Below, piece by piece: positions 2 to 50,985 of a stretch of DNA of 64,000 bases (position 1 is the stretch's first letter; every line of letters begins with the position of its first letter). This DNA comes from Polyangiales bacterium. GTDB lineage: Bacteria > Myxococcota_A > Polyangia > Polyangiales > Polyangiaceae. The stretch is from contig JBBRLQ010000022.1 in NCBI GenBank assembly GCA_038231275.1, positions 1-64,000 on the forward strand, read 5' to 3'. The notes beneath the pieces were generated by a model, which searched no databases, was not told the origin of the DNA, and saw nothing but the letters and a program-made list of their open reading frames with translations. Made by a program: the position numbers and the translations under genes.

Positions 2-433
<432 letters not shown>

Positions 434-682
434 CCGCCCGGGACAGGCCCACCCGCGCCGCACGCCCGCCGCTCGCGCGATCAAAAGAGTCGCGGGATGC
501 GACCGGCTCCGCGTAGCGGGTCATTGCCCGCGGAGTCGATCGCACCCCGACCCCCCGATCCTGAGCAAGGCCCGCGCCACCGCGCGATTGGCCAGTTTTT
601 CCCGCGTTCCGGAGGTGGCGCGTGCAATTTCTGACGGCGCGTCCCCCAAATCCGAGTATGAGGCGCGGGGAAGAGGCGGCTT

Positions 683-2188
683 ATGTTCCAGGAGCAGCTC
701 GAGCACGAAGACGGTCGCGTGGAGCTCAAAGAAGGCGTCGTCTTGGACGATCCCGCCCTCTTCAACGAGGACCTCGCCCCCACGAGCGTGAGCAAGCGCA
801 CGTGGACGACGTACACGTACGCCGCGCTGTGGATCTCGATGGCGCACTGCATCCCGACCTACATGCTCGCGTCGGGCCTCGTCGCCCCCGAGCCGCGCGG
901 CCCCGGGATGAACTGGTGGCAAGCGCTCCTCACGATCCTCGTCGGCAACGCGATCGTGCTCGTGCCGATCCTCGCGAACTCGCACCCCGGCACCAAGTAC
1001 GGCATCCCCTTCCCCGTCTTCGCGCGCGCGGCGTATGGCGTCTTCGGCGCGAACGTCCCCGCGGTGATGCGCGCCCTCGTCGCGTGCGGGTGGTTCGGCA
1101 TCCAGTGCTGGATCGGCGGGCAAGCGCTCTCGACGTTCTTCCGATCGCTCATGCCGCAGACGTACGCCGCGCTCAACGCGGAGCCCATCGCCGGCCACGG
1201 GATCACGGAGTGGGTGAGCTTCCTCCTTTTTTGGGGGCTCAACATCCTCATCGTCTACCGCGGCATGGAGCTGCTTCGCAAAGTGGAGAACTGGGCGGCG
1301 CCGTACGTGCTCGTGATGACGGCCGCGCTCGTCGTGTGGGCGATCACAGAGGCCAAGGGGCTGGGGCCGATGCTGACCGCGCCGAGCCATTTTGCGACGT
1401 TCGGCGACTTCTGGAAGAAATTCGTCCCCAGCGTGACCGCGATGATCGGGTTCTGGGCGACTTTGTCGCTCAACATGCCGGATTTCACCCGCTACGGGCG
1501 ATCGCAGCGCGAACAGGCGATCGGGCAGGTGGTCGCGCTTCCGACGACGATGACCGTCTTCGCGGCGATGGGCGTCTTCATCACCAGCGCCTCGGCGGTC
1601 ATCTACGGCGAGGCGGTGTGGGATCCGGTCGATCTCGTCGGCCACTTCACGTCGCGCATCGTCGTCGCCGTCTCGATGTTCACCGTCGTCGTCGCGACGC
1701 TCAGCGTGAACATCGCGGCGAACGTCGTGTCGCCGGCCAACGATTTTGCGAACATGTCGCCGAGGCGCATCAGCTTTCGCACCGGCGGCCTCATCACCGG
1801 CGTGATCGGCATCCTGATGATGCCCTGGAAGCTCATCGCCGATCCCAGCGGGTACATCTTCAAATGGCTCCTCGGGTATTCAGGCGGCCTCGGCTCGATC
1901 GCCGGCGTGCTCATCTGCGACTACTGGTTCGTGCGCAAGAAGCGCCTCGCGCTGGCCGATCTGTACCGGCGCCACGGCGAGTACGCGTACGCGAGCCTCG
2001 GGACGAACTGGTCGGCGGTGATCGCGACGGCGTGCGGGTGCTTCTTCGCGTGGGTCGGGCTGCTCGTGCCCGCGCTGCGCGTCATGTTCGACTACGCGTG
2101 GTTCTCGGGAAGCATCGGCGCAGCGGCGATCTACGCGCTCCTCATGCGATCGCACCGTCCCAGCGACGCGAGCCTCAGCGCACCCTGA
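683..2188 (+). CDS. NCS1-family nucleobase:cation symporter (uracil/dihydropyrimidine permease, PydP-like)
   Basis: 501 aa, about 12 hydrophobic segments. NCS1 motifs NEDLAP, GTKYGIPFPV, GWFGIQ, LSLNMPDFTRY, NIAANVVSP. Confidence 0.93.
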   Translation: MFQEQLEHEDGRVELKEGVVLDDPALFNEDLAPTSVSKRTWTTYTYAALWISMAHCIPTYMLASGLVAPEPRGPGMNWWQALLTILVGNAIVLVPILANSHPGTKYGIPFPVFARAAYGVFGANVPAVMRALVACGWFGIQCWIGGQALSTFFRSLMPQTYAALNAEPIAGHGITEWVSFLLFWGLNILIVYRGMELLRKVENWAAPYVLVMTAALVVWAITEAKGLGPMLTAPSHFATFGDFWKKFVPSVTAMIGFWATLSLNMPDFTRYGRSQREQAIGQVVALPTTMTVFAAMGVFITSASAVIYGEAVWDPVDLVGHFTSRIVVAVSMFTVVVATLSVNIAANVVSPANDFANMSPRRISFRTGGLITGVIGILMMPWKLIADPSGYIFKWLLGYSGGLGSIAGVLICDYWFVRKKRLALADLYRRHGEYAYASLGTNWSAVIATACGCFFAWVGLLVPALRVMFDYAWFSGSIGAAAIYALLMRSHRPSDASLSAP

Positions 2189-43718: not shown

Positions 43719-45410
43719 CTATCCTCCGACGCGCTCACCGACGACCACGTCGAGCTTGCCGCTCGTGGCGCGGAGCTCGAAGCGTACGGCGCGCGCGCCG
43801 CTGGCCGCCGCGCAGGCGCGCACGGCCGTCGCGGTGGCGGCGTGCGAGCGATCGATTTCCTCGTTGTTCGAGACGTCGAAGACGCGGAGGTCGAGGCCGG
43901 TTCCCTCCCCTTGCGCGCCTGCGGAGACGCGAACGCATTTGCGGGCGGGCACTTGCGTCTCCCACGAGAGGAGCTTGGCGGAGTCCACGGTCGCACCGCG
44001 CACGCCGAGCGCGGCCCCCTCGTGCATCATGCCGGCGCCGTCGACCGCGCGCGCGAGCATGCGCGCCGCCGCGAGCGGATGCTTGGTGAACTCGCCGTCC
44101 TGCCAACGCTCCTTGCGCGCGAGGACCGAGAACGGACCGGGGCGGCCGCGCGTCTCGAGGTCGAGGCGGACTTTTCCCTTTCCACACGCGAACAGCGTCG
44201 CGCCGTCGGGACCCTCGGCGCTCGTCACGAGGGTGCCCGCGTCGTCCCACACGTTCGCCTCGACGAGCGCGAGCGGCGCACCGGCAACGACGTCGACTCG
44301 CGTGCACGCCGGCGTCGGCCCGAGATCGAGCGGCAGCGACGCGCGACGGCCGATCGTGAGCGCGCCGGACGTCGTCATTCCCGGCGCCGCGTACCCGGCC
44401 TTCGCGAGCGCCGCGTTGCGGGCGTTGCGTGTCTGCTCGAGCGGCTGCGCCGGCGCCACCCCGGCCACGTCCGCGCGCGCGGACAGATCCCGCGCCGTTC
44501 CACCGCGGGCGCGCGCCACGACGACGGCCGCGAGGCCGCGCCCCACGTGCGGGCGAACCGACACGCTGCCCGTGAACGCGACCGGCGAGCACACCGTCGC
44601 CGCGCGATCGGCGCCGCCTTCTTTGGCGCGCGCGACCACGCGCCCGTCGCCGTCGAGGACCTCGACCTCGAGGAGCGCCACCGTCTCGTCTGGGACGACG
44701 ATGAGATCCACGCAGCCGTCCGCTTCGATGGGGAACGTCACATACCCCGACGCGCGCGCGTCGAGGGCGATCGCGAGGCGCTTCACCTCTTCCCACGTCC
44801 CGCCGAGCGCCGCGCGCCGGCCGCGCACCTTGTCGTCGAGCCCCGGCCAGGCCTCCGCCGGCCGCGGACCTTCGCCGTAGCCGCCGCGCGCTCCGACCGC
44901 CCGCGCAACTTCGATCGCGCGATCGGCGGGCACGAGCTGAGCGCCGAGCGCCACGAGCCCCTCCCCCGCCGCCACGTGCGCTGCGAGGTAGACGCGCTCG
45001 GGATGGGGAGGACACAGGAGCAGCGTGGGACGAGGATCGGGTCCTTCGTCGACGGCGACCGGGTTGCCTTCGTCGGCGAACGCGGCGATGTCGAGGTCCT
45101 CGACGCTCCCCGACGCGCGACCGTACGCGAGCAGACACAGGTCGGTCGGGATGTCGACGAACGCTCCGACGCGCTCTCCCTCCACCATCTCGCCCGACGC
45201 CGCGACGGAGAGCGGTCCTGCGCCAAAGCGCGAAGCGCGCTGCGGGAGATCGGCGAAGAGGACGCGCGACTCGAGATCGCCGACGGTCACACGCGGCGCG
45301 GGGAGGGGGGCCTTCACAGGTTTCGCGGGCGGAGGACGAGCTCCGCCGCATGCGGCGTTGGCGAGGGCGAGCGACAGCGCACCTGCGACGAGCATAGCGC
45401 GCGCCTTCAC
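43719..45410 (-). CDS. Lipoprotein with tandem Cys-containing beta-sandwich (PPC-like) modules
   Basis: Lipobox NAAC-GG; recurring C..(DLD)..D..G......C modules; start overlaps the upstream stop (GTGA). Confidence 0.72.
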   Translation of the reverse strand: MKARAMLVAGALSLALANAACGGARPPPAKPVKAPLPAPRVTVGDLESRVLFADLPQRASRFGAGPLSVAASGEMVEGERVGAFVDIPTDLCLLAYGRASGSVEDLDIAAFADEGNPVAVDEGPDPRPTLLLCPPHPERVYLAAHVAAGEGLVALGAQLVPADRAIEVARAVGARGGYGEGPRPAEAWPGLDDKVRGRRAALGGTWEEVKRLAIALDARASGYVTFPIEADGCVDLIVVPDETVALLEVEVLDGDGRVVARAKEGGADRAATVCSPVAFTGSVSVRPHVGRGLAAVVVARARGGTARDLSARADVAGVAPAQPLEQTRNARNAALAKAGYAAPGMTTSGALTIGRRASLPLDLGPTPACTRVDVVAGAPLALVEANVWDDAGTLVTSAEGPDGATLFACGKGKVRLDLETRGRPGPFSVLARKERWQDGEFTKHPLAAARMLARAVDGAGMMHEGAALGVRGATVDSAKLLSWETQVPARKCVRVSAGAQGEGTGLDLRVFDVSNNEEIDRSHAATATAVRACAAASGARAVRFELRATSGKLDVVVGERVGG

Positions 45411-46705
45411 CGCGACGCTCCCCAGATGCCGCTGTCGATGCGGAAGAGCGCGAGGCCCCATGCGAGCCCGGTGCCGCGGGCGTCGACCTCGATGCGGGCG
45501 CGCGACTGCTCGCGCGCGCAGAATGCCACCGCGCCGGCCTCGTCGTTGATTCCACGCTCGTCGCTCGATTGCCGCGCGCCGACCATCGCGCGGACGCCGA
45601 CGCCCCGCGCGTGTCCCTGCGTGACGGCGGCGACGGCGACGTAGCAGCCCCCTGGCTCGAGCTCGACCGGGACCACGGTGGAGCCCGTCGAGCCTTGCGC
45701 GAGCGCGACGGCGGGCACTGGCGGGCTTCCGATGTGGCGCGCCAGCATCGCGCCGGCCATCTTGCCGCGAGCCTCCGGTCCCCACGCCCACGGGAGGTTG
45801 CGCGGCAACGGCCACGACGCGTGCGTGAAGAGCACCGTCGACCCGGGCGGCGCGCCCGTGAAGGTCAGCGCGCCCTCGGTCTCCTTGCCGAGGCACGTCT
45901 CGATGTGCACGTCGGGCGCGTCGGTGCGATCGCGACCGAGCATCGTCTCGTCCTCTTCGTCACGAAGCTCGGCGTCGACGTCGAGGCGGAAGCGACGGTT
46001 CTGCGTGGCGGAGCGCGGATCGTTGGCGAATAGCTCCAGGCGATGGCACCCGGCGTCGAGCCCCACGTGACCTTCCCCGTTGCCGTCGACGCCGGCCGTC
46101 CAGCCTTCGCGCGTGGCGATCGCGGCGCCGTCGCGTCGCGCGCGACCCTCGGCGACATCGGCGCGGTGCGCGGGCGGAAGGAGCGGAGGGAGCACGCCGG
46201 GCTCGGCGGACGGTGGCGTCACCCCGCCGGTTCGCTCCGGCAACACCGTGCGCAGTGGCGGAACCGGGCTCCGCGAGTGGGCGACGAGGATCTCGATCGC
46301 GCCACGCCCCGCGTCGCTCGTCACGACGATGCGTTTGAGCGCCGGCCCATCGCAGCGGCCGATCTGCACGACGCCCGCGACGCTGGCCGCGCGCGCGCCT
46401 TCGTCGGGCGCGAGCGGATCGTCGTCTGTGCCGCCGATCTTGACGTGGAAGCTGAGACCACGCGCGCCCACCATTGCGACGGTCGTGCAGGTGCCCTCGG
46501 GCGCCGCCGGCACCGCGAAGATCGCAGTCTCGTCCTCGTAGACGAAGCGCGTCGGCGAGCGCGTGACCTTCGCGCCGACGCGCTGCCACTCGTCCTGCAC
46601 GCGCGATGCGACGTCACGAAGATCGGCGCGCGCGGGGCGCGTGACGATGCCGGCCCCCGACGCGAGCCCGAACATCACCGCCCACGTGCCGAGGTTTCGA
46701 GTCAC
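45407..46705 (-). CDS. Secreted protein with tandem Cys-containing beta-sandwich modules
   Basis: Signal ending ARA-D; modules CTTVAMVG, GCHRLELF, GCYVAVAA resembling the downstream lipoprotein. Confidence 0.7.
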   Translation of the reverse strand: MTRNLGTWAVMFGLASGAGIVTRPARADLRDVASRVQDEWQRVGAKVTRSPTRFVYEDETAIFAVPAAPEGTCTTVAMVGARGLSFHVKIGGTDDDPLAPDEGARAASVAGVVQIGRCDGPALKRIVVTSDAGRGAIEILVAHSRSPVPPLRTVLPERTGGVTPPSAEPGVLPPLLPPAHRADVAEGRARRDGAAIATREGWTAGVDGNGEGHVGLDAGCHRLELFANDPRSATQNRRFRLDVDAELRDEEDETMLGRDRTDAPDVHIETCLGKETEGALTFTGAPPGSTVLFTHASWPLPRNLPWAWGPEARGKMAGAMLARHIGSPPVPAVALAQGSTGSTVVPVELEPGGCYVAVAAVTQGHARGVGVRAMVGARQSSDERGINDEAGAVAFCAREQSRARIEVDARGTGLAWGLALFRIDSGIWGASR

Positions 46706-46764: not shown

Positions 46765-47280
46765 TCAACCTTCCACGATCAGCGGGGCCTCCACGAAGCC
46801 CCGACGCAAAGGATCCCACACGAAGAGCTTCCGATCGTCGACGACGCCGGCGCGCACGCTCGTGACGAGGTACGCGAGCTCGTACGTCGGCTCTTCTCCG
46901 CCGGCGGTCGCGGCCGCGGCGTCGGTGTCGGAGAAGTAGGACCCGACGTCGAGGTGCGAGTGGTAGAGCACCTTCACCGGCCGGCCGTTCGCCTCCCCTT
47001 CGCGCACCGCCCGCGCAAATTTCATCGGATCGAGGTCGAAGTACATCCGCCCCGTCCGCGGGTACGTCTCCGGATCGAGCGCGTGGAGCTTGTTCGCGCG
47101 GTTCTCCATCGGCACGACCTCGTCGATGCGGAGCGCGTCGCCGGCGGGGCCGCGGAGCAGCCCACAGCTCTCCTCGTCTCGCGCATACGCGGCGCGCGCC
47201 TCCTCGAACACGCGGTCGAGGAGCTCCTTGCCGATGACCACGCCGGAGACCGCCCACGGATGGCTCGTCACGTCTCGCAT
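46765..47280 (-). CDS. JAMM/MPN+ metallopeptidase (Mec-like CysO-cysteine peptidase)
   Basis: EESCGLL...YHSHLD...SDTD = E-xn-HxH-x7-S-x2-D JAMM motif. Confidence 0.9.
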   Translation of the reverse strand: MRDVTSHPWAVSGVVIGKELLDRVFEEARAAYARDEESCGLLRGPAGDALRIDEVVPMENRANKLHALDPETYPRTGRMYFDLDPMKFARAVREGEANGRPVKVLYHSHLDVGSYFSDTDAAAATAGGEEPTYELAYLVTSVRAGVVDDRKLFVWDPLRRGFVEAPLIVEG

Positions 47281-47300: not shown

Positions 47301-48245
47301 TCACCAGACATATTTCTTCTCCCACTTCATCGGCGCGAAATACCGGTCGCCGCGGTCGGCCACGATGACGACGACGCATCCGCCTGCTCCGCTCTCCTGC
47401 AGCTCCTCCGCGAGGCGCACGGCGGCGAACACGTTGGCGCCCGACGAGTGGCCCACGTTGAGCCCTTCCTTCTGCGCGAGCAGCTCGGACATGTTCCACC
47501 CGTCCTCGGTCTGGACGCGCACGGTCTCGTCGGGGATGCCCGCGTCGTAGATGGCGGGCACGATGCTCGACGCGAGGTGCTTCAAGCCCTCGAGCCCGTG
47601 CATCGCCTCGGTCGGCTCGACGGCCAGGCACCGGATCTTCCGCGCGTGCTCCTTCAAGCGCCGCGTCGTCCCCATCATCGTCCCCGTCGTGCCGATCCCG
47701 GCGATGAAGTGCGTGATGCGATCGCCTAGCGCTTCGACGATCTCTGCGCCGGTGCCGAAGTAGTGCGCGAGTGGGTTTTGCGGGTTCGAGTACTGGTCGG
47801 GGTAGTAGTAGCGCCCCGGCTCCTCCTTCACGATGCGCTGCACGTGGAGGATGGCGCCGTCGGACCCTTCCATTGGATCGGAGAAGACGATCTCGGTGCC
47901 GAACGCGCGCGCGATGTCCTTGCGCGCTTTGGACACGTTCATCGGCATCACCAGGCGCACCTTTACGCCGAGCGCGGCGCCGAACAGCGAGTAAGCGACG
48001 CCGGTGTTGCCGCTCGTCGAGTCGATGAGGATCTTGTCGCGCGTGAGCTCGCCGGACGCGAGCGCCTCCTGCATCATGCGGAGCGCCGCGCGATCCTTGA
48101 CGCTGCCGCCAGGGTTGCAGAACTCGAGCTTCGCGTAGACCGGGACGTCCGGGCACTTCTCGGTCACCTTGCGGAGGCGCAAGAGCGGCGTGCGGCCGAC
48201 CGCGTCCACGATCGACTCCGAGCGAAACGCGCGCGCGAGGCTCAC
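47301..48245 (-). CDS. cysM: PLP-dependent cysteine synthase, CysM-like (sulfur-carrier dependent)
   Basis: VGRTPL, NPGGSVKDR, DSTSGNTG, DQYSNP, GIGTTGT, HGLEGLKHL, GHSSGA, DRGDRY; Trp-ending C-terminal extension. Confidence 0.85.
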   Translation of the reverse strand: MSLARAFRSESIVDAVGRTPLLRLRKVTEKCPDVPVYAKLEFCNPGGSVKDRAALRMMQEALASGELTRDKILIDSTSGNTGVAYSLFGAALGVKVRLVMPMNVSKARKDIARAFGTEIVFSDPMEGSDGAILHVQRIVKEEPGRYYYPDQYSNPQNPLAHYFGTGAEIVEALGDRITHFIAGIGTTGTMMGTTRRLKEHARKIRCLAVEPTEAMHGLEGLKHLASSIVPAIYDAGIPDETVRVQTEDGWNMSELLAQKEGLNVGHSSGANVFAAVRLAEELQESGAGGCVVVIVADRGDRYFAPMKWEKKYVW

Positions 48246-48523
48246 GACGCCCCGCCGATCCAGGCGCGACGAAGCGCGACGAGCGCCGCGTGCGCCCCCG
48301 TCGCCACATCGCGCGCCGCAGGATCCGCGATCTCGAACGGCAGCACGTGGACCTCGGAGGCCTCGCCGTCGACGCTCGCGCCCGCGGCCTCGAGGTACCT
48401 CCGCTCCACGCGCGCGGCCTCCCCGCGGGTCGCCAGTGCGAGCGAGGTCCCGGCCAGGCGCGCCTGACCTGCCTCGCCGACCTCGACGAGGCGCGTCTGC
48501 CGCGTGTAGCGCCGCGCCGCCAC
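48242..48523 (-). CDS. Mini ThiF/MoeB-like protein (93 aa; RYxRQ segment, no nucleotide-binding loop)
   Basis: RYTRQTRLVEVGEAGQARL...YLEAAG aligns by eye to the MoeB N-terminus. Starts 2 nt after the Ubl stop; its own stop overlaps the cysM start. Confidence 0.75.
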   Translation of the reverse strand: MAARRYTRQTRLVEVGEAGQARLAGTSLALATRGEAARVERRYLEAAGASVDGEASEVHVLPFEIADPAARDVATGAHAALVALRRAWIGGAS

Positions 48524-48525
48524 GA

Positions 48526-48798
48526 TCAGCCGCCGGCGATCGCGGGGACGATGCTGATTTGATCGCCACCCTTCACTTCGGTGCCGAGCCCGTTCAGGAA
48601 GCGAACGTCCTCCTCGCCGACGTAGATGTTGATGAAGCGCCGAACGCCCTTCGCGTCGAGCAGGCGATCCTTGATGCCGGGGTGCCGCTTCTCGAGATCC
48701 TCGATGACGGCGCCGACGGTGCCGCCATCGGCCGGGACCTCGTCCTTGCCGCCGGTGAGCGGGCGGAGCGGGGCGGGAATTCGAACGATCGTGCTCAT
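48526..48798 (-). CDS. Ubiquitin-like sulfur carrier (CysO/MoaD/ThiS family)
   Basis: MSTIVRIPAPLR..TGG...RFINIYV.EEDVRFL.GL.T...GD.ISIVPAIAGG*; C-terminal GG; AAGGAG RBS. Confidence 0.93.
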   Translation of the reverse strand: MSTIVRIPAPLRPLTGGKDEVPADGGTVGAVIEDLEKRHPGIKDRLLDAKGVRRFINIYVGEEDVRFLNGLGTEVKGGDQISIVPAIAGG

Positions 48799-48812
48799 GG
48801 TCTTCTCCTTGG

Positions 48813-49547
48813 TCATCCTTCGCAAACACTCGAGTCGGGCGGCGCGTAGCGGGCAGGGTCGATGTGATCGATCGTTCCGATGCGCCGGACGCCACAAAGC
48901 GCGCACCCGAGGCGGGCGGGGACGCGGCGGCGGCGGAGGGCGTCGGTCTTGCCGTCGAACGTGACGAGCGTGCCGGCCACGTCGGCGCCGTCGATCATGG
49001 CGAGCGCCAGATCCGCCTGGAGCGCCCCGACCACGCCGACCATCGGGCCCACAACGCCGGCCTCCCCGCAGTTCGGGGCGTCGCCCTCCGGGAGATCCTC
49101 GAAGAGGCAGCGGTAGCAGGGCCGCCCTCCCCGCGCGACAGCGAACGCCGTGCCGTGCCAGCGTACGGCCGCCGCGTGCACGATGGGGACCTTGGCGATC
49201 GCGCACGCATCCGCGGCGAGGAACTTCGTCGCGAAGTTGTCGCTCCCCTCGACGACCAGATCGTATCCGCCGACGAGATCGACGGCGGTAGCGGGGAGGA
49301 GCCGTGTCCGATGCTCCTCGACCTTCATGCCAGGCGCCTCGCGCGCGAGGGCCTTCGCGGCGGCACCGACTTTGTGCGCGCCGACGTCGGCGTCGGTGAA
49401 GAGGATCTGACGATGGAGGTTGGTGACATCGATCTCGTCGTCGTCGCACAGACCGAGCGTGCCGACGCCGGAGCGCGCGAGCACGAGCGCGGAGGGGCAC
49501 CCGAGGCCGCCGACGCCAACGACGAGGACGCGCGCGCGCGATCTCAC
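48813..49547 (-). CDS. ThiF/MoeB-family E1-like adenylyltransferase lacking the N-terminal RYxRQ segment and a rhodanese domain
   Basis: VLVVGVGGLGCP, TNLHRQIL, GSDNF, PCYRC, NCGEAG, CALCG. GTG start overlaps the cysK stop and follows a GGAGG RBS. Confidence 0.9.
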   Translation of the reverse strand: MRSRARVLVVGVGGLGCPSALVLARSGVGTLGLCDDDEIDVTNLHRQILFTDADVGAHKVGAAAKALAREAPGMKVEEHRTRLLPATAVDLVGGYDLVVEGSDNFATKFLAADACAIAKVPIVHAAAVRWHGTAFAVARGGRPCYRCLFEDLPEGDAPNCGEAGVVGPMVGVVGALQADLALAMIDGADVAGTLVTFDGKTDALRRRRVPARLGCALCGVRRIGTIDHIDPARYAPPDSSVCEG

Positions 49548-50530
49548 GGCGCCTCCTCCGGGAAGTAGTCGGCGAGGCTGAAATACCGCTCTCCGGTGTC
49601 GCACATGACCGTCACGACGTGCTTGCCCGGCCCGAGCTCTCGCGCGACGTCGTCGGCGACGAACGCGGCGGCGCCGGCGCTGATCCCGACGAGGAGCCCG
49701 CTCTCACGCGCGAGGGCCAGCTTCGCCTTCCACGCGTCCGCGTCGGACACGGTTCGCACCTCGTCGACGACATCCGCATGATAGTTCTTCGGCACGAAGC
49801 CGGCGGCGAGTCCCTGGATTTTGGTGGGTCCGCGCTCTCCGCGCGAGATCGTCGCGCACGCTTCCGGCTCGACGGCCACGATGCGGGGACCACCGCGCGT
49901 CGCGGGTCCGAGCTCCGCGCGCAGCGCCTTGCCGACGCCGCTGATCGTCCCGCCGGTCCCTACGCCGGCGACGAACGCGTCGATCGACAGATCGCGCATC
50001 GCGTGGAGGATTTCGCGCGCGGTGGTCTTCGCGTGCACCTCGGGGTTGGCGGGGTTGCCGAACTGATCGGGCAAGAACGCGCCAGGCGTCACCTCCCCAA
50101 GCGCGCGCGCCGCGCGGATCGCCCCTTCCATCTGCTCTTCGGCCGGCGTCAGCACGATCTTCGCGCCGTAGGACTCGAGGAGCTGGCGGCGCTCGAGGCT
50201 CATGCTCTCGGGCATCGTCAGGATGCACGTGTACCCCTTCACGGCGCACACGAGCGCGAGCCCGATGCCGGTGTTGCCACTCGTCGGCTCGATGACGACG
50301 CCGCCCGCTTGGAGGCGTCCGCTCTTCTCCGCCTTCTCGATCATCGCGAGGCAGATGCGATCCTTCAGCGAGCCGCCGGGGTTCAAGTGCTCGAGCTTCG
50401 CCCACACCGTCGCGCGTGGCGCCACGGCGGCGTCCCGCGCGGGCGCGAGACGAACGAGCGGCGTCTGCCCGACGAGATCGAGCATCGACTCGGCGATGAG
50501 GAGCGGCCTCGGCGTCGGTGCGGCGCTCAT
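49544..50530 (-). CDS. cysK: Cysteine synthase A (O-acetylserine sulfhydrylase)
   Basis: VGQTPLV, NPGGSLKDR, EPTSGNTGIGLA, MPESMSLERR, QFGNPANP, GVGTGGT, KIQGLAAGFVP, DTGERY. Confidence 0.93.
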   Translation of the reverse strand: MSAAPTPRPLLIAESMLDLVGQTPLVRLAPARDAAVAPRATVWAKLEHLNPGGSLKDRICLAMIEKAEKSGRLQAGGVVIEPTSGNTGIGLALVCAVKGYTCILTMPESMSLERRQLLESYGAKIVLTPAEEQMEGAIRAARALGEVTPGAFLPDQFGNPANPEVHAKTTAREILHAMRDLSIDAFVAGVGTGGTISGVGKALRAELGPATRGGPRIVAVEPEACATISRGERGPTKIQGLAAGFVPKNYHADVVDEVRTVSDADAWKAKLALARESGLLVGISAGAAAFVADDVARELGPGKHVVTVMCDTGERYFSLADYFPEEAP

Positions 50531-50532
50531 GA

Positions 50533-50985
50533 TCAGATCACGTAGACGCTCGGCGAGCGCGCTCCGCGGACGATCCCGGCTTGCTCCGCGCGCGCGCACA
50601 CGTCCGCGAGCGTCAACTTCGAGGAGCAGGCCTCCATGTCGTGGGTGAGATCGTCGAGGATCTGATCGCACAGCTCGCGCAGCTCGGGCGGAGCGGCCGC
50701 GCCCTTTCGCGAGGCCTTCGGCGTGGCCCCCTCGGTCGCCTTCAGCACGTCGCCCACCCGGATCTCCGCCGGCGCGCGCGTGAGCTGGTAGCCCCCTCGC
50801 GGGCCGCGCTTCGATGCGACGAGCCCCTCGCGCCGGAGGTCCTGGAAAATCTGCTCCAAGAAGCGCAGCGGGATGCGCTGCCGACGCGCGACGTCCTTGA
50901 TTTGCGCCGGGACGGCGGCGCCGTGGAAGGCGAGATCGCTCAGCGCCCGAACGGCGTAGCGACCCTTGCTGGAGACGCGGATCAT
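50533..50985 (-). CDS. Rrf2-family transcriptional regulator (CymR-like)
   Basis: SSKGRYAVRAL.DLA, FLEQIF..L...GLVASKRGPRGGYQL; lacks the IscR-type Cys triad; heads the cys operon. Confidence 0.92.
   Translation of the reverse strand: MIRVSSKGRYAVRALSDLAFHGAAVPAQIKDVARRQRIPLRFLEQIFQDLRREGLVASKRGPRGGYQLTRAPAEIRVGDVLKATEGATPKASRKGAAAPPELRELCDQILDDLTHDMEACSSKLTLADVCARAEQAGIVRGARSPSVYVI

Follow-up and report, generated by a model that had tools for sequence, protein, structure and literature searches.

A putative two-part E1 enzyme in a myxobacterial sulfur-carrier operon, with a 93-residue candidate for its inactive partner

E1 enzymes are obligate dimers or pseudo-dimers, and the need for a second adenylation domain has mostly been studied in the large eukaryotic enzymes. 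Asymmetric E1s are known in eukaryotes: SAE1 (Aos1)-SAE2 (Uba2) for SUMO and APPBP1-UBA3 for NEDD8 both pair an active with an inactive adenylation domain, and in such heterodimers the inactive subunit donates an arginine finger. Here we describe a locus in a window of 64,000 nucleotides (nt) from a Polyangiales bacterium, a soil-type myxobacterium (GenBank assembly GCA_038231275.1, contig JBBRLQ010000022.1, positions 1 to 64,000, the whole stretch that was analysed). It encodes a sulfur-carrier E1 without its N-terminal arm (48813..49547, minus strand) and, beyond the gene of a ubiquitin-like sulfur carrier (Ubl), a small open reading frame (ORF) for a protein that carries such an arm (48242..48523, minus strand), hereafter the mini. 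The pair looks like a bacterial miniature of the two-part SUMO and NEDD8 E1s.

The locus shares with the MoeB-MoaD and ThiF-ThiS systems of E. coli the fold, the catalytic residues and a ThiS/MoaD-type carrier ending in Gly-Gly. In contrast to MoeB and ThiF, the catalytic chain lacks the N-terminal segment, which is carried by a separate, non-catalytic chain of 93 amino acids (aa), and instead of a symmetric homodimer an asymmetric assembly with one active site is predicted. Compared with SAE1 and APPBP1, the putative inactive partner has about 93 aa instead of more than 300 aa and consists only of the arm, one beta-alpha-beta unit and one helix. Unlike the eukaryotic E1s, the system has no catalytic-cysteine domain, no ubiquitin-fold domain (UFD) and no E2, and it would serve sulfur transfer, not protein conjugation.

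A bacterial E1 combining an inactive N-terminal and an active C-terminal domain in a single chain is BilD of the Bil anti-phage systems; the available part of its description presents all other known bacterial E1-like proteins as homodimers (PMC10557695). With a predicted pairing of an active and an inactive adenylation domain in a pseudo-dimer, our bacterial locus would resemble BilD. BilD, however, is a single chain in the order inactive-active, has a CYS domain and works with an E2, whereas here two genes are involved, the fused forms have the order active-inactive, the inactive part is miniaturised and no conjugation machinery is present. In yeast, the ThiF-family heterodimer Tcd1-Tcd2, which forms cyclic N6-threonylcarbamoyladenosine (ct6A), uses Arg59 of Tcd1 as a finger that completes the active site of the partner, as the accessible sections of PMC13139853 report. 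Both Tcd subunits are of full size and their substrate is tRNA, in contrast to the pair described here. In the mycobacterial CysO pathway the E1 is encoded away from the operon. Operons composed of ThiS/MoaD, E1, JAB and cysteine synthase have been classified as type 4c, with the E1 fused to a rhodanese domain (Iyer, Burroughs, Aravind 2006; PMC1779556, in the part available). The terms "heterodimer", "inactive E1" and "myxo" do not occur in that part of PMC1779556. With type 4c and the mycobacterial CysO-CysM-Mec+ system with MoeZ our locus shares the repertoire of a GG-ending ThiS-like carrier, a JAB protease, a CysM-type synthase and an E1; it differs in that the operon E1 has neither rhodanese domain nor N-terminal arm and is accompanied by the mini.

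A literature search covering few subscription-journal papers brought up no description of a two-gene, miniature inactive partner of a sulfur-carrier E1. A survey of the E1 superfamily, reportedly by Burroughs, Iyer and Aravind in 2009, could bear on novelty. If the reading developed below is true, the locus would encode the first two-gene asymmetric E1 of a bacterial sulfur-carrier pathway and would define the minimal elements that an E1 adenylation domain needs from its partner, since the 93-residue protein appears to keep only dimer-interface elements and the arginine-finger arm.

The E1 (244 aa) begins with VRSRARVLVVGVGGLGCP. Its GTG start codon (49547-49545) overlaps the TGA of the upstream cysK-like gene (49546-49544) as GTGA and is preceded, at a distance of 6 nt, by the Shine-Dalgarno sequence GGAGGAGG. 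The original prediction had pointed to a GTG lying over the cysK stop and to a missing N-terminal segment, and its description of the sequence proved right throughout. The Pfam ThiF profile (PF00899) matches the protein with 206.4 bits (E 4.6e-61; cut-off 28.1), but over positions 20-230 of 238 only, and with the NCBIfam models for ThiF, MoeB and MoeZ every match begins at profile position 21 or later. In alignments with solved structures, residue 5 pairs with MoeB residue 32 and ThiF residue 29, hence about 27 N-terminal residues are missing. The arginine-finger segment RYxRQ...GxxGQ..L is absent from the window E1 in both the Pfam and the solved-structure alignments, and no in-frame RYxRQ segment occurs upstream of any of 38 operon E1s with an intact 5' region (35 loci once the window itself and two duplicates are removed). 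A longer E1 starting at GTG 49604 was considered and rejected: the extension gives no further match to ThiF, would share 61 nt with cysK and has no Shine-Dalgarno sequence like that before 49547.

The remainder of the domain is conserved. Invariant among 34 orthologous operon E1s are the GxGGxG motif (G11, G13, G14, G16), D35, R46, Q47, D103 and two CxxC motifs, and K59 is nearly so. With the offset of +27, R46, K59 and D103 correspond to MoeB Arg73, Lys86 and Asp130, which are ATP/Mg ligands according to the part of PMC13139853 at hand. The best sequence matches in the PDB are ThiF and MoeB (E about 1e-41). As judged from these residues, the E1 is the active subunit, a complete adenylation domain of the active type without only its N-terminal helical arm. 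The C-terminal tail past the second CxxC motif (within 48813-48890, minus strand) has the conserved form I..I...RY....C in two alignments (A3 and A6), with Y234 nearly invariant and a cysteine near the C-terminus in most sequences, fusions included. No rhodanese domain is present in the operon E1 (Pfam); this cysteine might, speculatively, carry persulfide sulfur for that reason. A full-length rhodanese-ThiF protein, normal N-terminal segment included, is encoded on another contig of this genome, and a third, partial match to the ThiF family (genome G000, contig C12, 56465-56854, L003) covers profile positions 13-145 with 70.5 bits.

The mini begins with VAARRYTRQTRLVEVGEAGQARL. It had been predicted to open with the very segment that the E1 lacks and to continue with a degenerate P-loop region and a final helix, and both claims hold. 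Comparing 50 minis with 14 full-length ThiF/MoeZ proteins, hhalign matched mini residues 2-53, with a probability of 98.5% (E 2.2e-15), to the N-terminal helices, beta1, P-loop, alphaA and beta2 of the full-length proteins. When the minis were aligned with the truncated E1s, the probability was just 4.9%; from this near-vanished signal it follows that the similarity of the mini lies mostly in the piece that the E1 lost. A search of the PDB with the mini profile (hmmsearch) found the N-termini of Uba4, ThiF and MoeB, with profile positions 4-62 on ThiF residues 7-65 and 3-68 on MoeB residues 9-74, so that R8 of the mini corresponds to ThiF Arg11 and MoeB Arg14. Both arginines are fingers donated by the neighbouring subunit, as stated in the accessible part of PMC13139853. 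All 50 of the aligned minis have R8. Among the best 150 cluster representatives, ranked by profile score, R8 is kept in 149, Q9 in 147, G19 in all and Q20 in 148, while Y43, G48 and A80 each occur in 150 of 150.

The AlphaFold model of the mini has a mean predicted local distance difference test (pLDDT) score of 87.9 and a predicted template modelling (pTM) score of 0.80. Foldseek alone returned no match at E<=0.001 for this model, the best being ThiF with E 0.028; such weak values are attributable to the small size of the protein, and the top-ranked structures were ThiF, Uba4, APPBP1, SAE1 and MoeB. Structural alignment with VIA-align placed all 93 residues on Uba4 11..233 (Z 8.5), ThiF 4..215 (Z 7.3) and MoeB 7..218 (Z 7.0), with a root-mean-square deviation (rmsd) of 3.1, and 90-91 residues on APPBP1 and SAE1, both inactive subunits (Z about 6). 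According to this alignment, the C-terminal helix corresponds to the long helix past the crossover loop of full E1s. The protein is accordingly composed of the N-terminal RYxRQ..GxxGQ..L helices, a degenerate beta1/P-loop/alphaA/beta2 unit and one long helix. Its GxGGxG motif is degenerate, the segment with the ribose-binding Asp, NLxRQ and Lys is deleted, and the catalytic Asp and the CxxC zinc site are absent from the alignment. By its motifs, the mini is a stripped-down, catalytically dead paralogue of the adenylation domain that keeps the arginine of the finger.

The mini-ORF is conserved and is a genuine gene. Its GTG and the preceding stop of the Ubl gene are 2 nt apart, its TGA overlaps the GTG of the following cysM-like gene as GTGA, and a guanine-plus-cytosine (GC) content of 0.83/0.60/0.91 by codon position is what true coding frames show in high-GC genomes. 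With 43-81% identity, 13 further small proteins (88-119 aa) came up in a word-indexed search, and a profile search of 1.84 billion cluster representatives gave 572 matches at E<=1e-10; 148 of the best 150 (clusters at 50% identity) were proteins of 85-145 aa matched from end to end. The ratio of nonsynonymous to synonymous substitution rates (dN/dS, Nei-Gojobori) was 0.17-0.55 in 11 of 12 pairs of loci and 0.85 in the remaining pair, in which only 41 codons could be aligned; for five neighbouring genes it was 0.03-0.46. These values indicate purifying selection on the mini, weaker than that on the surrounding enzymes, as the original prediction had anticipated in expecting a conserved gene under constraint. 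The frame is intact across the order at identities down to about 30-35%. No Pfam or NCBIfam family describes it: Pfam gave no match at E<=1, the best NCBIfam scores were only 19.1 and 17.6 bits, far under the cut-offs, and sources that name the family label it "hypothetical protein". Our reading would assign a function to this unannotated Myxococcota protein family of at least about 150 clusters at 50% identity.

The mini is linked to truncated E1s well beyond the window. In named genomes, 30 of the 65 loci returned were inspected, 19 of which were N-termini of long ThiF-type frames; the 35 uninspected loci matched the query only up to about residue 61. The other 11 inspected loci, from Polyangiaceae, Labilithrix and metagenome-assembled genomes (MAGs) of Myxococcales, encode a stand-alone mini, in 10 cases in the order cysK-E1-Ubl-mini-cysM-JAB and in the eleventh (L009) as E1-Ubl-mini with the synthases not adjacent. 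A further 30 loci were examined across the order (one unpublished genome, G123, is within these order-wide tallies, and no specific claim depends on it). The complete six-gene order is found in 22 of them; it is broken by a contig end in four, one has E1-Ubl-mini only, and in three the E1 is followed directly by the mini, with no Ubl, cysM or JAB. Over the 41 loci together, the mini follows E1-Ubl in 34 and directly follows the E1, with no Ubl, in three (L084, L088 and L092); in L078 and L089 the stretch ends before any E1, and L070 (the window) and L069 (a duplicate of L005) have the same order. The E1 is also directly followed by the mini at a further locus, L107. These four loci without adjacent Ubl, cysM and JAB come from four genomes of the window's own family, and their E1-mini pair may serve a carrier encoded elsewhere. 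In genus g82, the order is E1-Ubl-mini-JAB with no adjacent cysM or cysK (L113 and L114).

For the converse, all ThiF-family matches with their profile starts and all mini-profile matches were listed for 46 genomes drawn evenly from the order. An operon-type E1 without the canonical N-terminus was found in 31 genomes, and a mini adjoins it in 29; four of the 29 are weak matches and one was detected by local hidden Markov model (HMM) search only. None of the remaining 15 genomes has a stand-alone mini, their sole matches being the N-termini of their own full-length ThiF proteins. The proposed co-occurrence of truncated E1 and mini is thus borne out (29 of 31 versus 0 of 15), and truncated E1s do not commonly lack the mini. 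The two exceptions among the 31 are genomes G045 and G042.

In several lineages the two proteins are joined. In the proteins of six clusters (P0111, P0170, P0171, P0172, P0173 and P0228; 355-367 aa), a linker joins a truncated E1 to a mini behind it, the five clusters other than P0111 being 83% to 51% identical to P0111; one is named HesA/MoeB/ThiF family protein at NCBI and comes from a Polyangiaceae MAG. A seventh E1-mini fusion, L112, is encoded in a genome from a different family of the phylum. In a quick maximum-likelihood tree the six metagenomic fusions fall within the clade that the window's own family forms (support 99), which identifies them as secondary re-fusions. Other joined forms are E1-Ubl in P0175 (355 aa, with both Pfam domains) and possibly in L004 (2709-3734) and L087 (554-1504), where both share one frame without intervening stop, and Ubl-mini in P0114 (211 aa). 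The Ubl part of P0114 still ends in AIAGG, so that the JAB protease of the operon could in principle split it from the mini.

The geometry of the pair was approached through P0111, modelled by AlphaFold from an alignment (A6) of the six fusions and 34 E1s; an earlier alignment of P0111 with E1s and minis (A5) was discarded, MAFFT having put the minis on the E1 part, with RQ on NLHRQ. The model has a pLDDT of 91.5 (94-98 in the mini part) and a pTM of 0.91, and only the linker, residues 259-267, is disordered. ThiF and MoeB cover the E1 part only (221-229 residues, model 9..238, Z 27-28), whereas single-chain E1s cover both parts (284-306 residues, model 7..365, rmsd 2.8-3.4, Z 24-26.6). Among the latter are UBA7 (8sea_A; Z 25.9, rmsd 2.8, 297 residues, model 12..365 on chain 21..880), Uba1 (5l6h_A; Z 25.5, rmsd 3.2, 300 residues, 7..365 on 20..893) and UBA6 (7pvn_B; Z 25.0, rmsd 2.9, 299 residues, 9..365 on 46..919). 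This superposition on both parts implies that E1 and mini adopt in the model the arrangement of a canonical E1's two adenylation domains; in the natural fusion P0111 the mini is predicted to occupy the position of the partner protomer, in a pseudo-dimer.

We regard as probable, judging the explanation jointly with all its parts, that the locus is an operon of the CysO/CysM type, in which by analogy a sulfur carrier protein would feed cysteine synthesis, with an E1 divided into two unequal polypeptides and the mini as the replacement for the second protomer. The mini would take the place of that protomer in the ancestral ThiF/MoeB homodimer and cover the dimer interface of the E1, with R8 inserted towards the ATP site of the E1, so that the pseudo-dimer would be asymmetric and have a single active site. 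The Ubl would be adenylated by this complex at its C-terminal Gly-Gly and then thiocarboxylated; in that form it is presumably used by the cysM-like enzyme, and release of the cysteine or processing of the carrier would fall to the JAB protease. We infer that E1 and mini of the window bind each other, that they do so in a stoichiometry of 1:1 and that R8 contributes to catalysis; we likewise infer the chemistry of the pathway, from its likeness to the mycobacterial CysO system.

Several observations weigh against this reading. In 11 of 12 pairs the mini ranks first of the six genes in dN/dS and thus evolves faster than its neighbours, and the counts of conserved residues are biased upward, since profile score decided which 150 representatives were used. 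In genus g79 (family f22; G045, G114 and G147) the order is cysK-E1(truncated)-Ubl-cysM-JAB with cysM right after the Ubl and no mini, and no other mini-profile match was found in G045; a truncated E1 can apparently persist without a mini. G042 has a truncated E1 after cysK, and within 1.4 kb there is no Ubl and no mini. The mini of genus g82 has Lys at the finger position and His for the following Gln (two loci). The geometry derives from the model of a fused homologue with an E1 part of 52% identity to the window E1, just six sequences cover the mini part of the alignment, and AlphaFold may merely have reproduced learned E1 dimer contacts. Moreover, the available sections of PMC13139853 describe the MoeB and ThiF arginine fingers as non-essential, E. 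coli TcdA as lacking an arginine finger, and the R59A exchange in yeast Tcd1 as of little effect. Together with the loss in g79 and the Lys in g82, these reports suggest that the main role of the mini may be to cap and stabilise the dimer interface, the finger bringing a secondary benefit in rate or fidelity. As to the earlier proposal that the mini supplies the arginine, the placement of R8 on ThiF Arg11 and MoeB Arg14 stands, and the finger is perhaps not the essential contribution.

The persistence of a truncated E1 without mini in g79 is also what would be expected if the E1 had kept the canonical homodimer and two minis docked onto it to form (E1)2(mini)2, the arm having been separated by fission or permutation and the rest of the mini serving as scaffold or handle. 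The retention of all catalytic motifs in the E1 and the C-terminal position of the arm in the fused forms, like that after permutation by duplication, agree with such an arrangement as well. We nevertheless consider it unlikely: the mini folds with confidence as a self-contained unit of the arm and the Rossmann part under it, so that the arm would not be free to pack canonically on the E1; the predicted structure of the fusion superposes on two-domain E1s with the mini at the homodimer interface; and Y43, G48 and A80, which lie outside the arm, are kept in all of the 150 best representatives.

The faster evolution of the mini compared with the surrounding enzymes, its dispensability in g79 and the finger reported as non-essential within the family (PMC13139853, in the part available) would likewise suit a regulator or adaptor, that is, a decoy protomer which caps the E1, turns it off and in this way adjusts the flux of the pathway, or a bridge to CysM, JAB or a sulfur donor. 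The Ubl-mini fusion P0114 and the in-frame fusion of the mini with a downstream protein in L088 show other physical associations. Such a role is improbable in our view, as the finger Arg-Gln, GxxGQ and the interface helix are the most conserved features (149 of the 150 best representatives keep R8 and 147 keep Q9) and would be needless for a mere cap, the segment lost by the E1 is exactly the one that the mini retains, and a stable covalent link to the E1, present in seven lineages or clusters, is more in keeping with a constitutive subunit than with a switch. Given the many spurious ORFs in high-GC genomes, the lack of a Pfam match and the relaxed constraint relative to the neighbours, the mini might even be taken for a chance ORF or the decaying, functionless remnant of an E1 duplicate. 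This is hardly credible and effectively refuted already by the comparative data: the ORF is intact across the order with a dN/dS well under 1 in 11 of 12 pairs and a coding-type GC content at third codon positions, start and stop are tightly coupled to the adjacent genes, the fold is predicted with confidence and the database holds hundreds of clusters. For the pseudo-dimer that we prefer, natural controls are available in the fused forms, the longer intermediates, the Lys-finger lineage and the partner-less lineage.

The split E1 is an old trait belonging to an entire Myxococcota order, and other parts of the phylum have related forms. In this respect the original prediction, which credited this bacterium with having evolved an active-plus-inactive E1, needs revision: an asymmetric architecture is supported by the catalytically dead mini, the fusions and the fusion model, but it is not peculiar to this organism. 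Locus L109, from another order of the class, encodes in the same operon slot a pseudo-E1 of about 150 aa with a degenerate P-loop and a larger remainder of the Rossmann fold; it just reaches the Pfam ThiF cut-off (29.3 versus 28.1 bits), over positions 1-93 only. L112 and L109 branch first in the tree, on long and uncertain branches. The E1 of genome G011 (L102, contig G011:C819) has an N-terminal extension of about 60 residues as well as a mini at the same locus; the last 25 or so residues of the extension resemble a decayed RQ..L..G..GQ..L segment and the Pfam match begins at profile position 5. With this degenerate remnant, it may be an evolutionary intermediate. Genus g79, whose sister genus is g82, is nested among mini-bearing lineages in the tree, and its lack of the mini hence represents a secondary loss. 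Outside the order, nearly all mini-profile matches in 75 further genomes of the phylum are the N-terminal ends of ThiF proteins of full length. Inside the bacterial ThiF/MoeB radiation, the truncated E1s form one group (weak support, 79), which suggests an origin independent of eukaryotic E1s.

These forms could be explained by duplication of the operon E1, after which one copy would have lost the arm and the other all but the arm and the elements that hold it. The mini family would then be an example of how an enzyme is split or permuted through duplication followed by reciprocal loss. We lean slightly towards the view that Myxococcota independently invented an asymmetric E1, an architecture so far taken as typical of eukaryotic ubiquitin-like systems and of BilD, whose inactive subunit in Myxococcota was whittled down to a module of 93 residues with interface and arginine finger, and that the pseudo-E1 of about 150 aa, the minis of 90-120 aa, the re-fusions in reverse order and the loss of the mini are the surviving series.

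The locus comprises seven tightly packed genes, all on the minus strand: Rrf2, cysK-like, E1, Ubl, mini, cysM-like and JAB. The Rrf2-family transcriptional regulator (50533..50985, 150 aa; Pfam Rrf2 E 2.6e-30, 105.7 bits, cut-off 30) is encoded directly upstream of cysK and is likely the regulator of the operon, to which it is assigned by its position alone; a cysteine- or redox-responsive control is plausible. The cysK-like protein (49544..50530, 328 aa) affiliates to the pyridoxal phosphate (PLP)-dependent cysteine synthases (Pfam PALP E 7.8e-73), with 362.7 bits to the NCBIfam model TIGR01139 cysK (cut-off 350.95). The Ubl (48526..48798, 90 aa) is a CysO-like sulfur carrier of the ThiS/MoaD type (Pfam ThiS E 2.3e-17, 63.7 bits). 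Its sequence ends in AGG and thus in Gly-Gly; it also matches the NCBIfam models SAMP1 and MoaD_arch, both under their cut-offs. The cysM-like protein (47301..48245, 314 aa), again a PLP-dependent cysteine synthase (Pfam PALP E 6.4e-63, 213 bits), has TIGR01138 cysM as its top NCBIfam match, with 318 bits under a cut-off of 394. The last gene encodes a JAB/JAMM metalloprotease resembling Mec+ (46765..47280, 171 aa; Pfam Prok-JAB E 7.6e-12, 45.6 bits, cut-off 25).

Just downstream of the JAB gene lies a gene for a protein of 422 aa (45410-46675, minus strand), followed by an ORF at 43722-45413 (minus strand); the former belongs to no Pfam family and the latter has no Pfam match. The 422-aa protein is 40% identical (E 6e-89) to a protein of genome G034. 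There (L088, 223-1842), the homologue continues the frame of the mini without a stop, giving an open frame of 539 aa. This frame may be a fusion or a sequencing artefact, the neighbour being conserved in either case.

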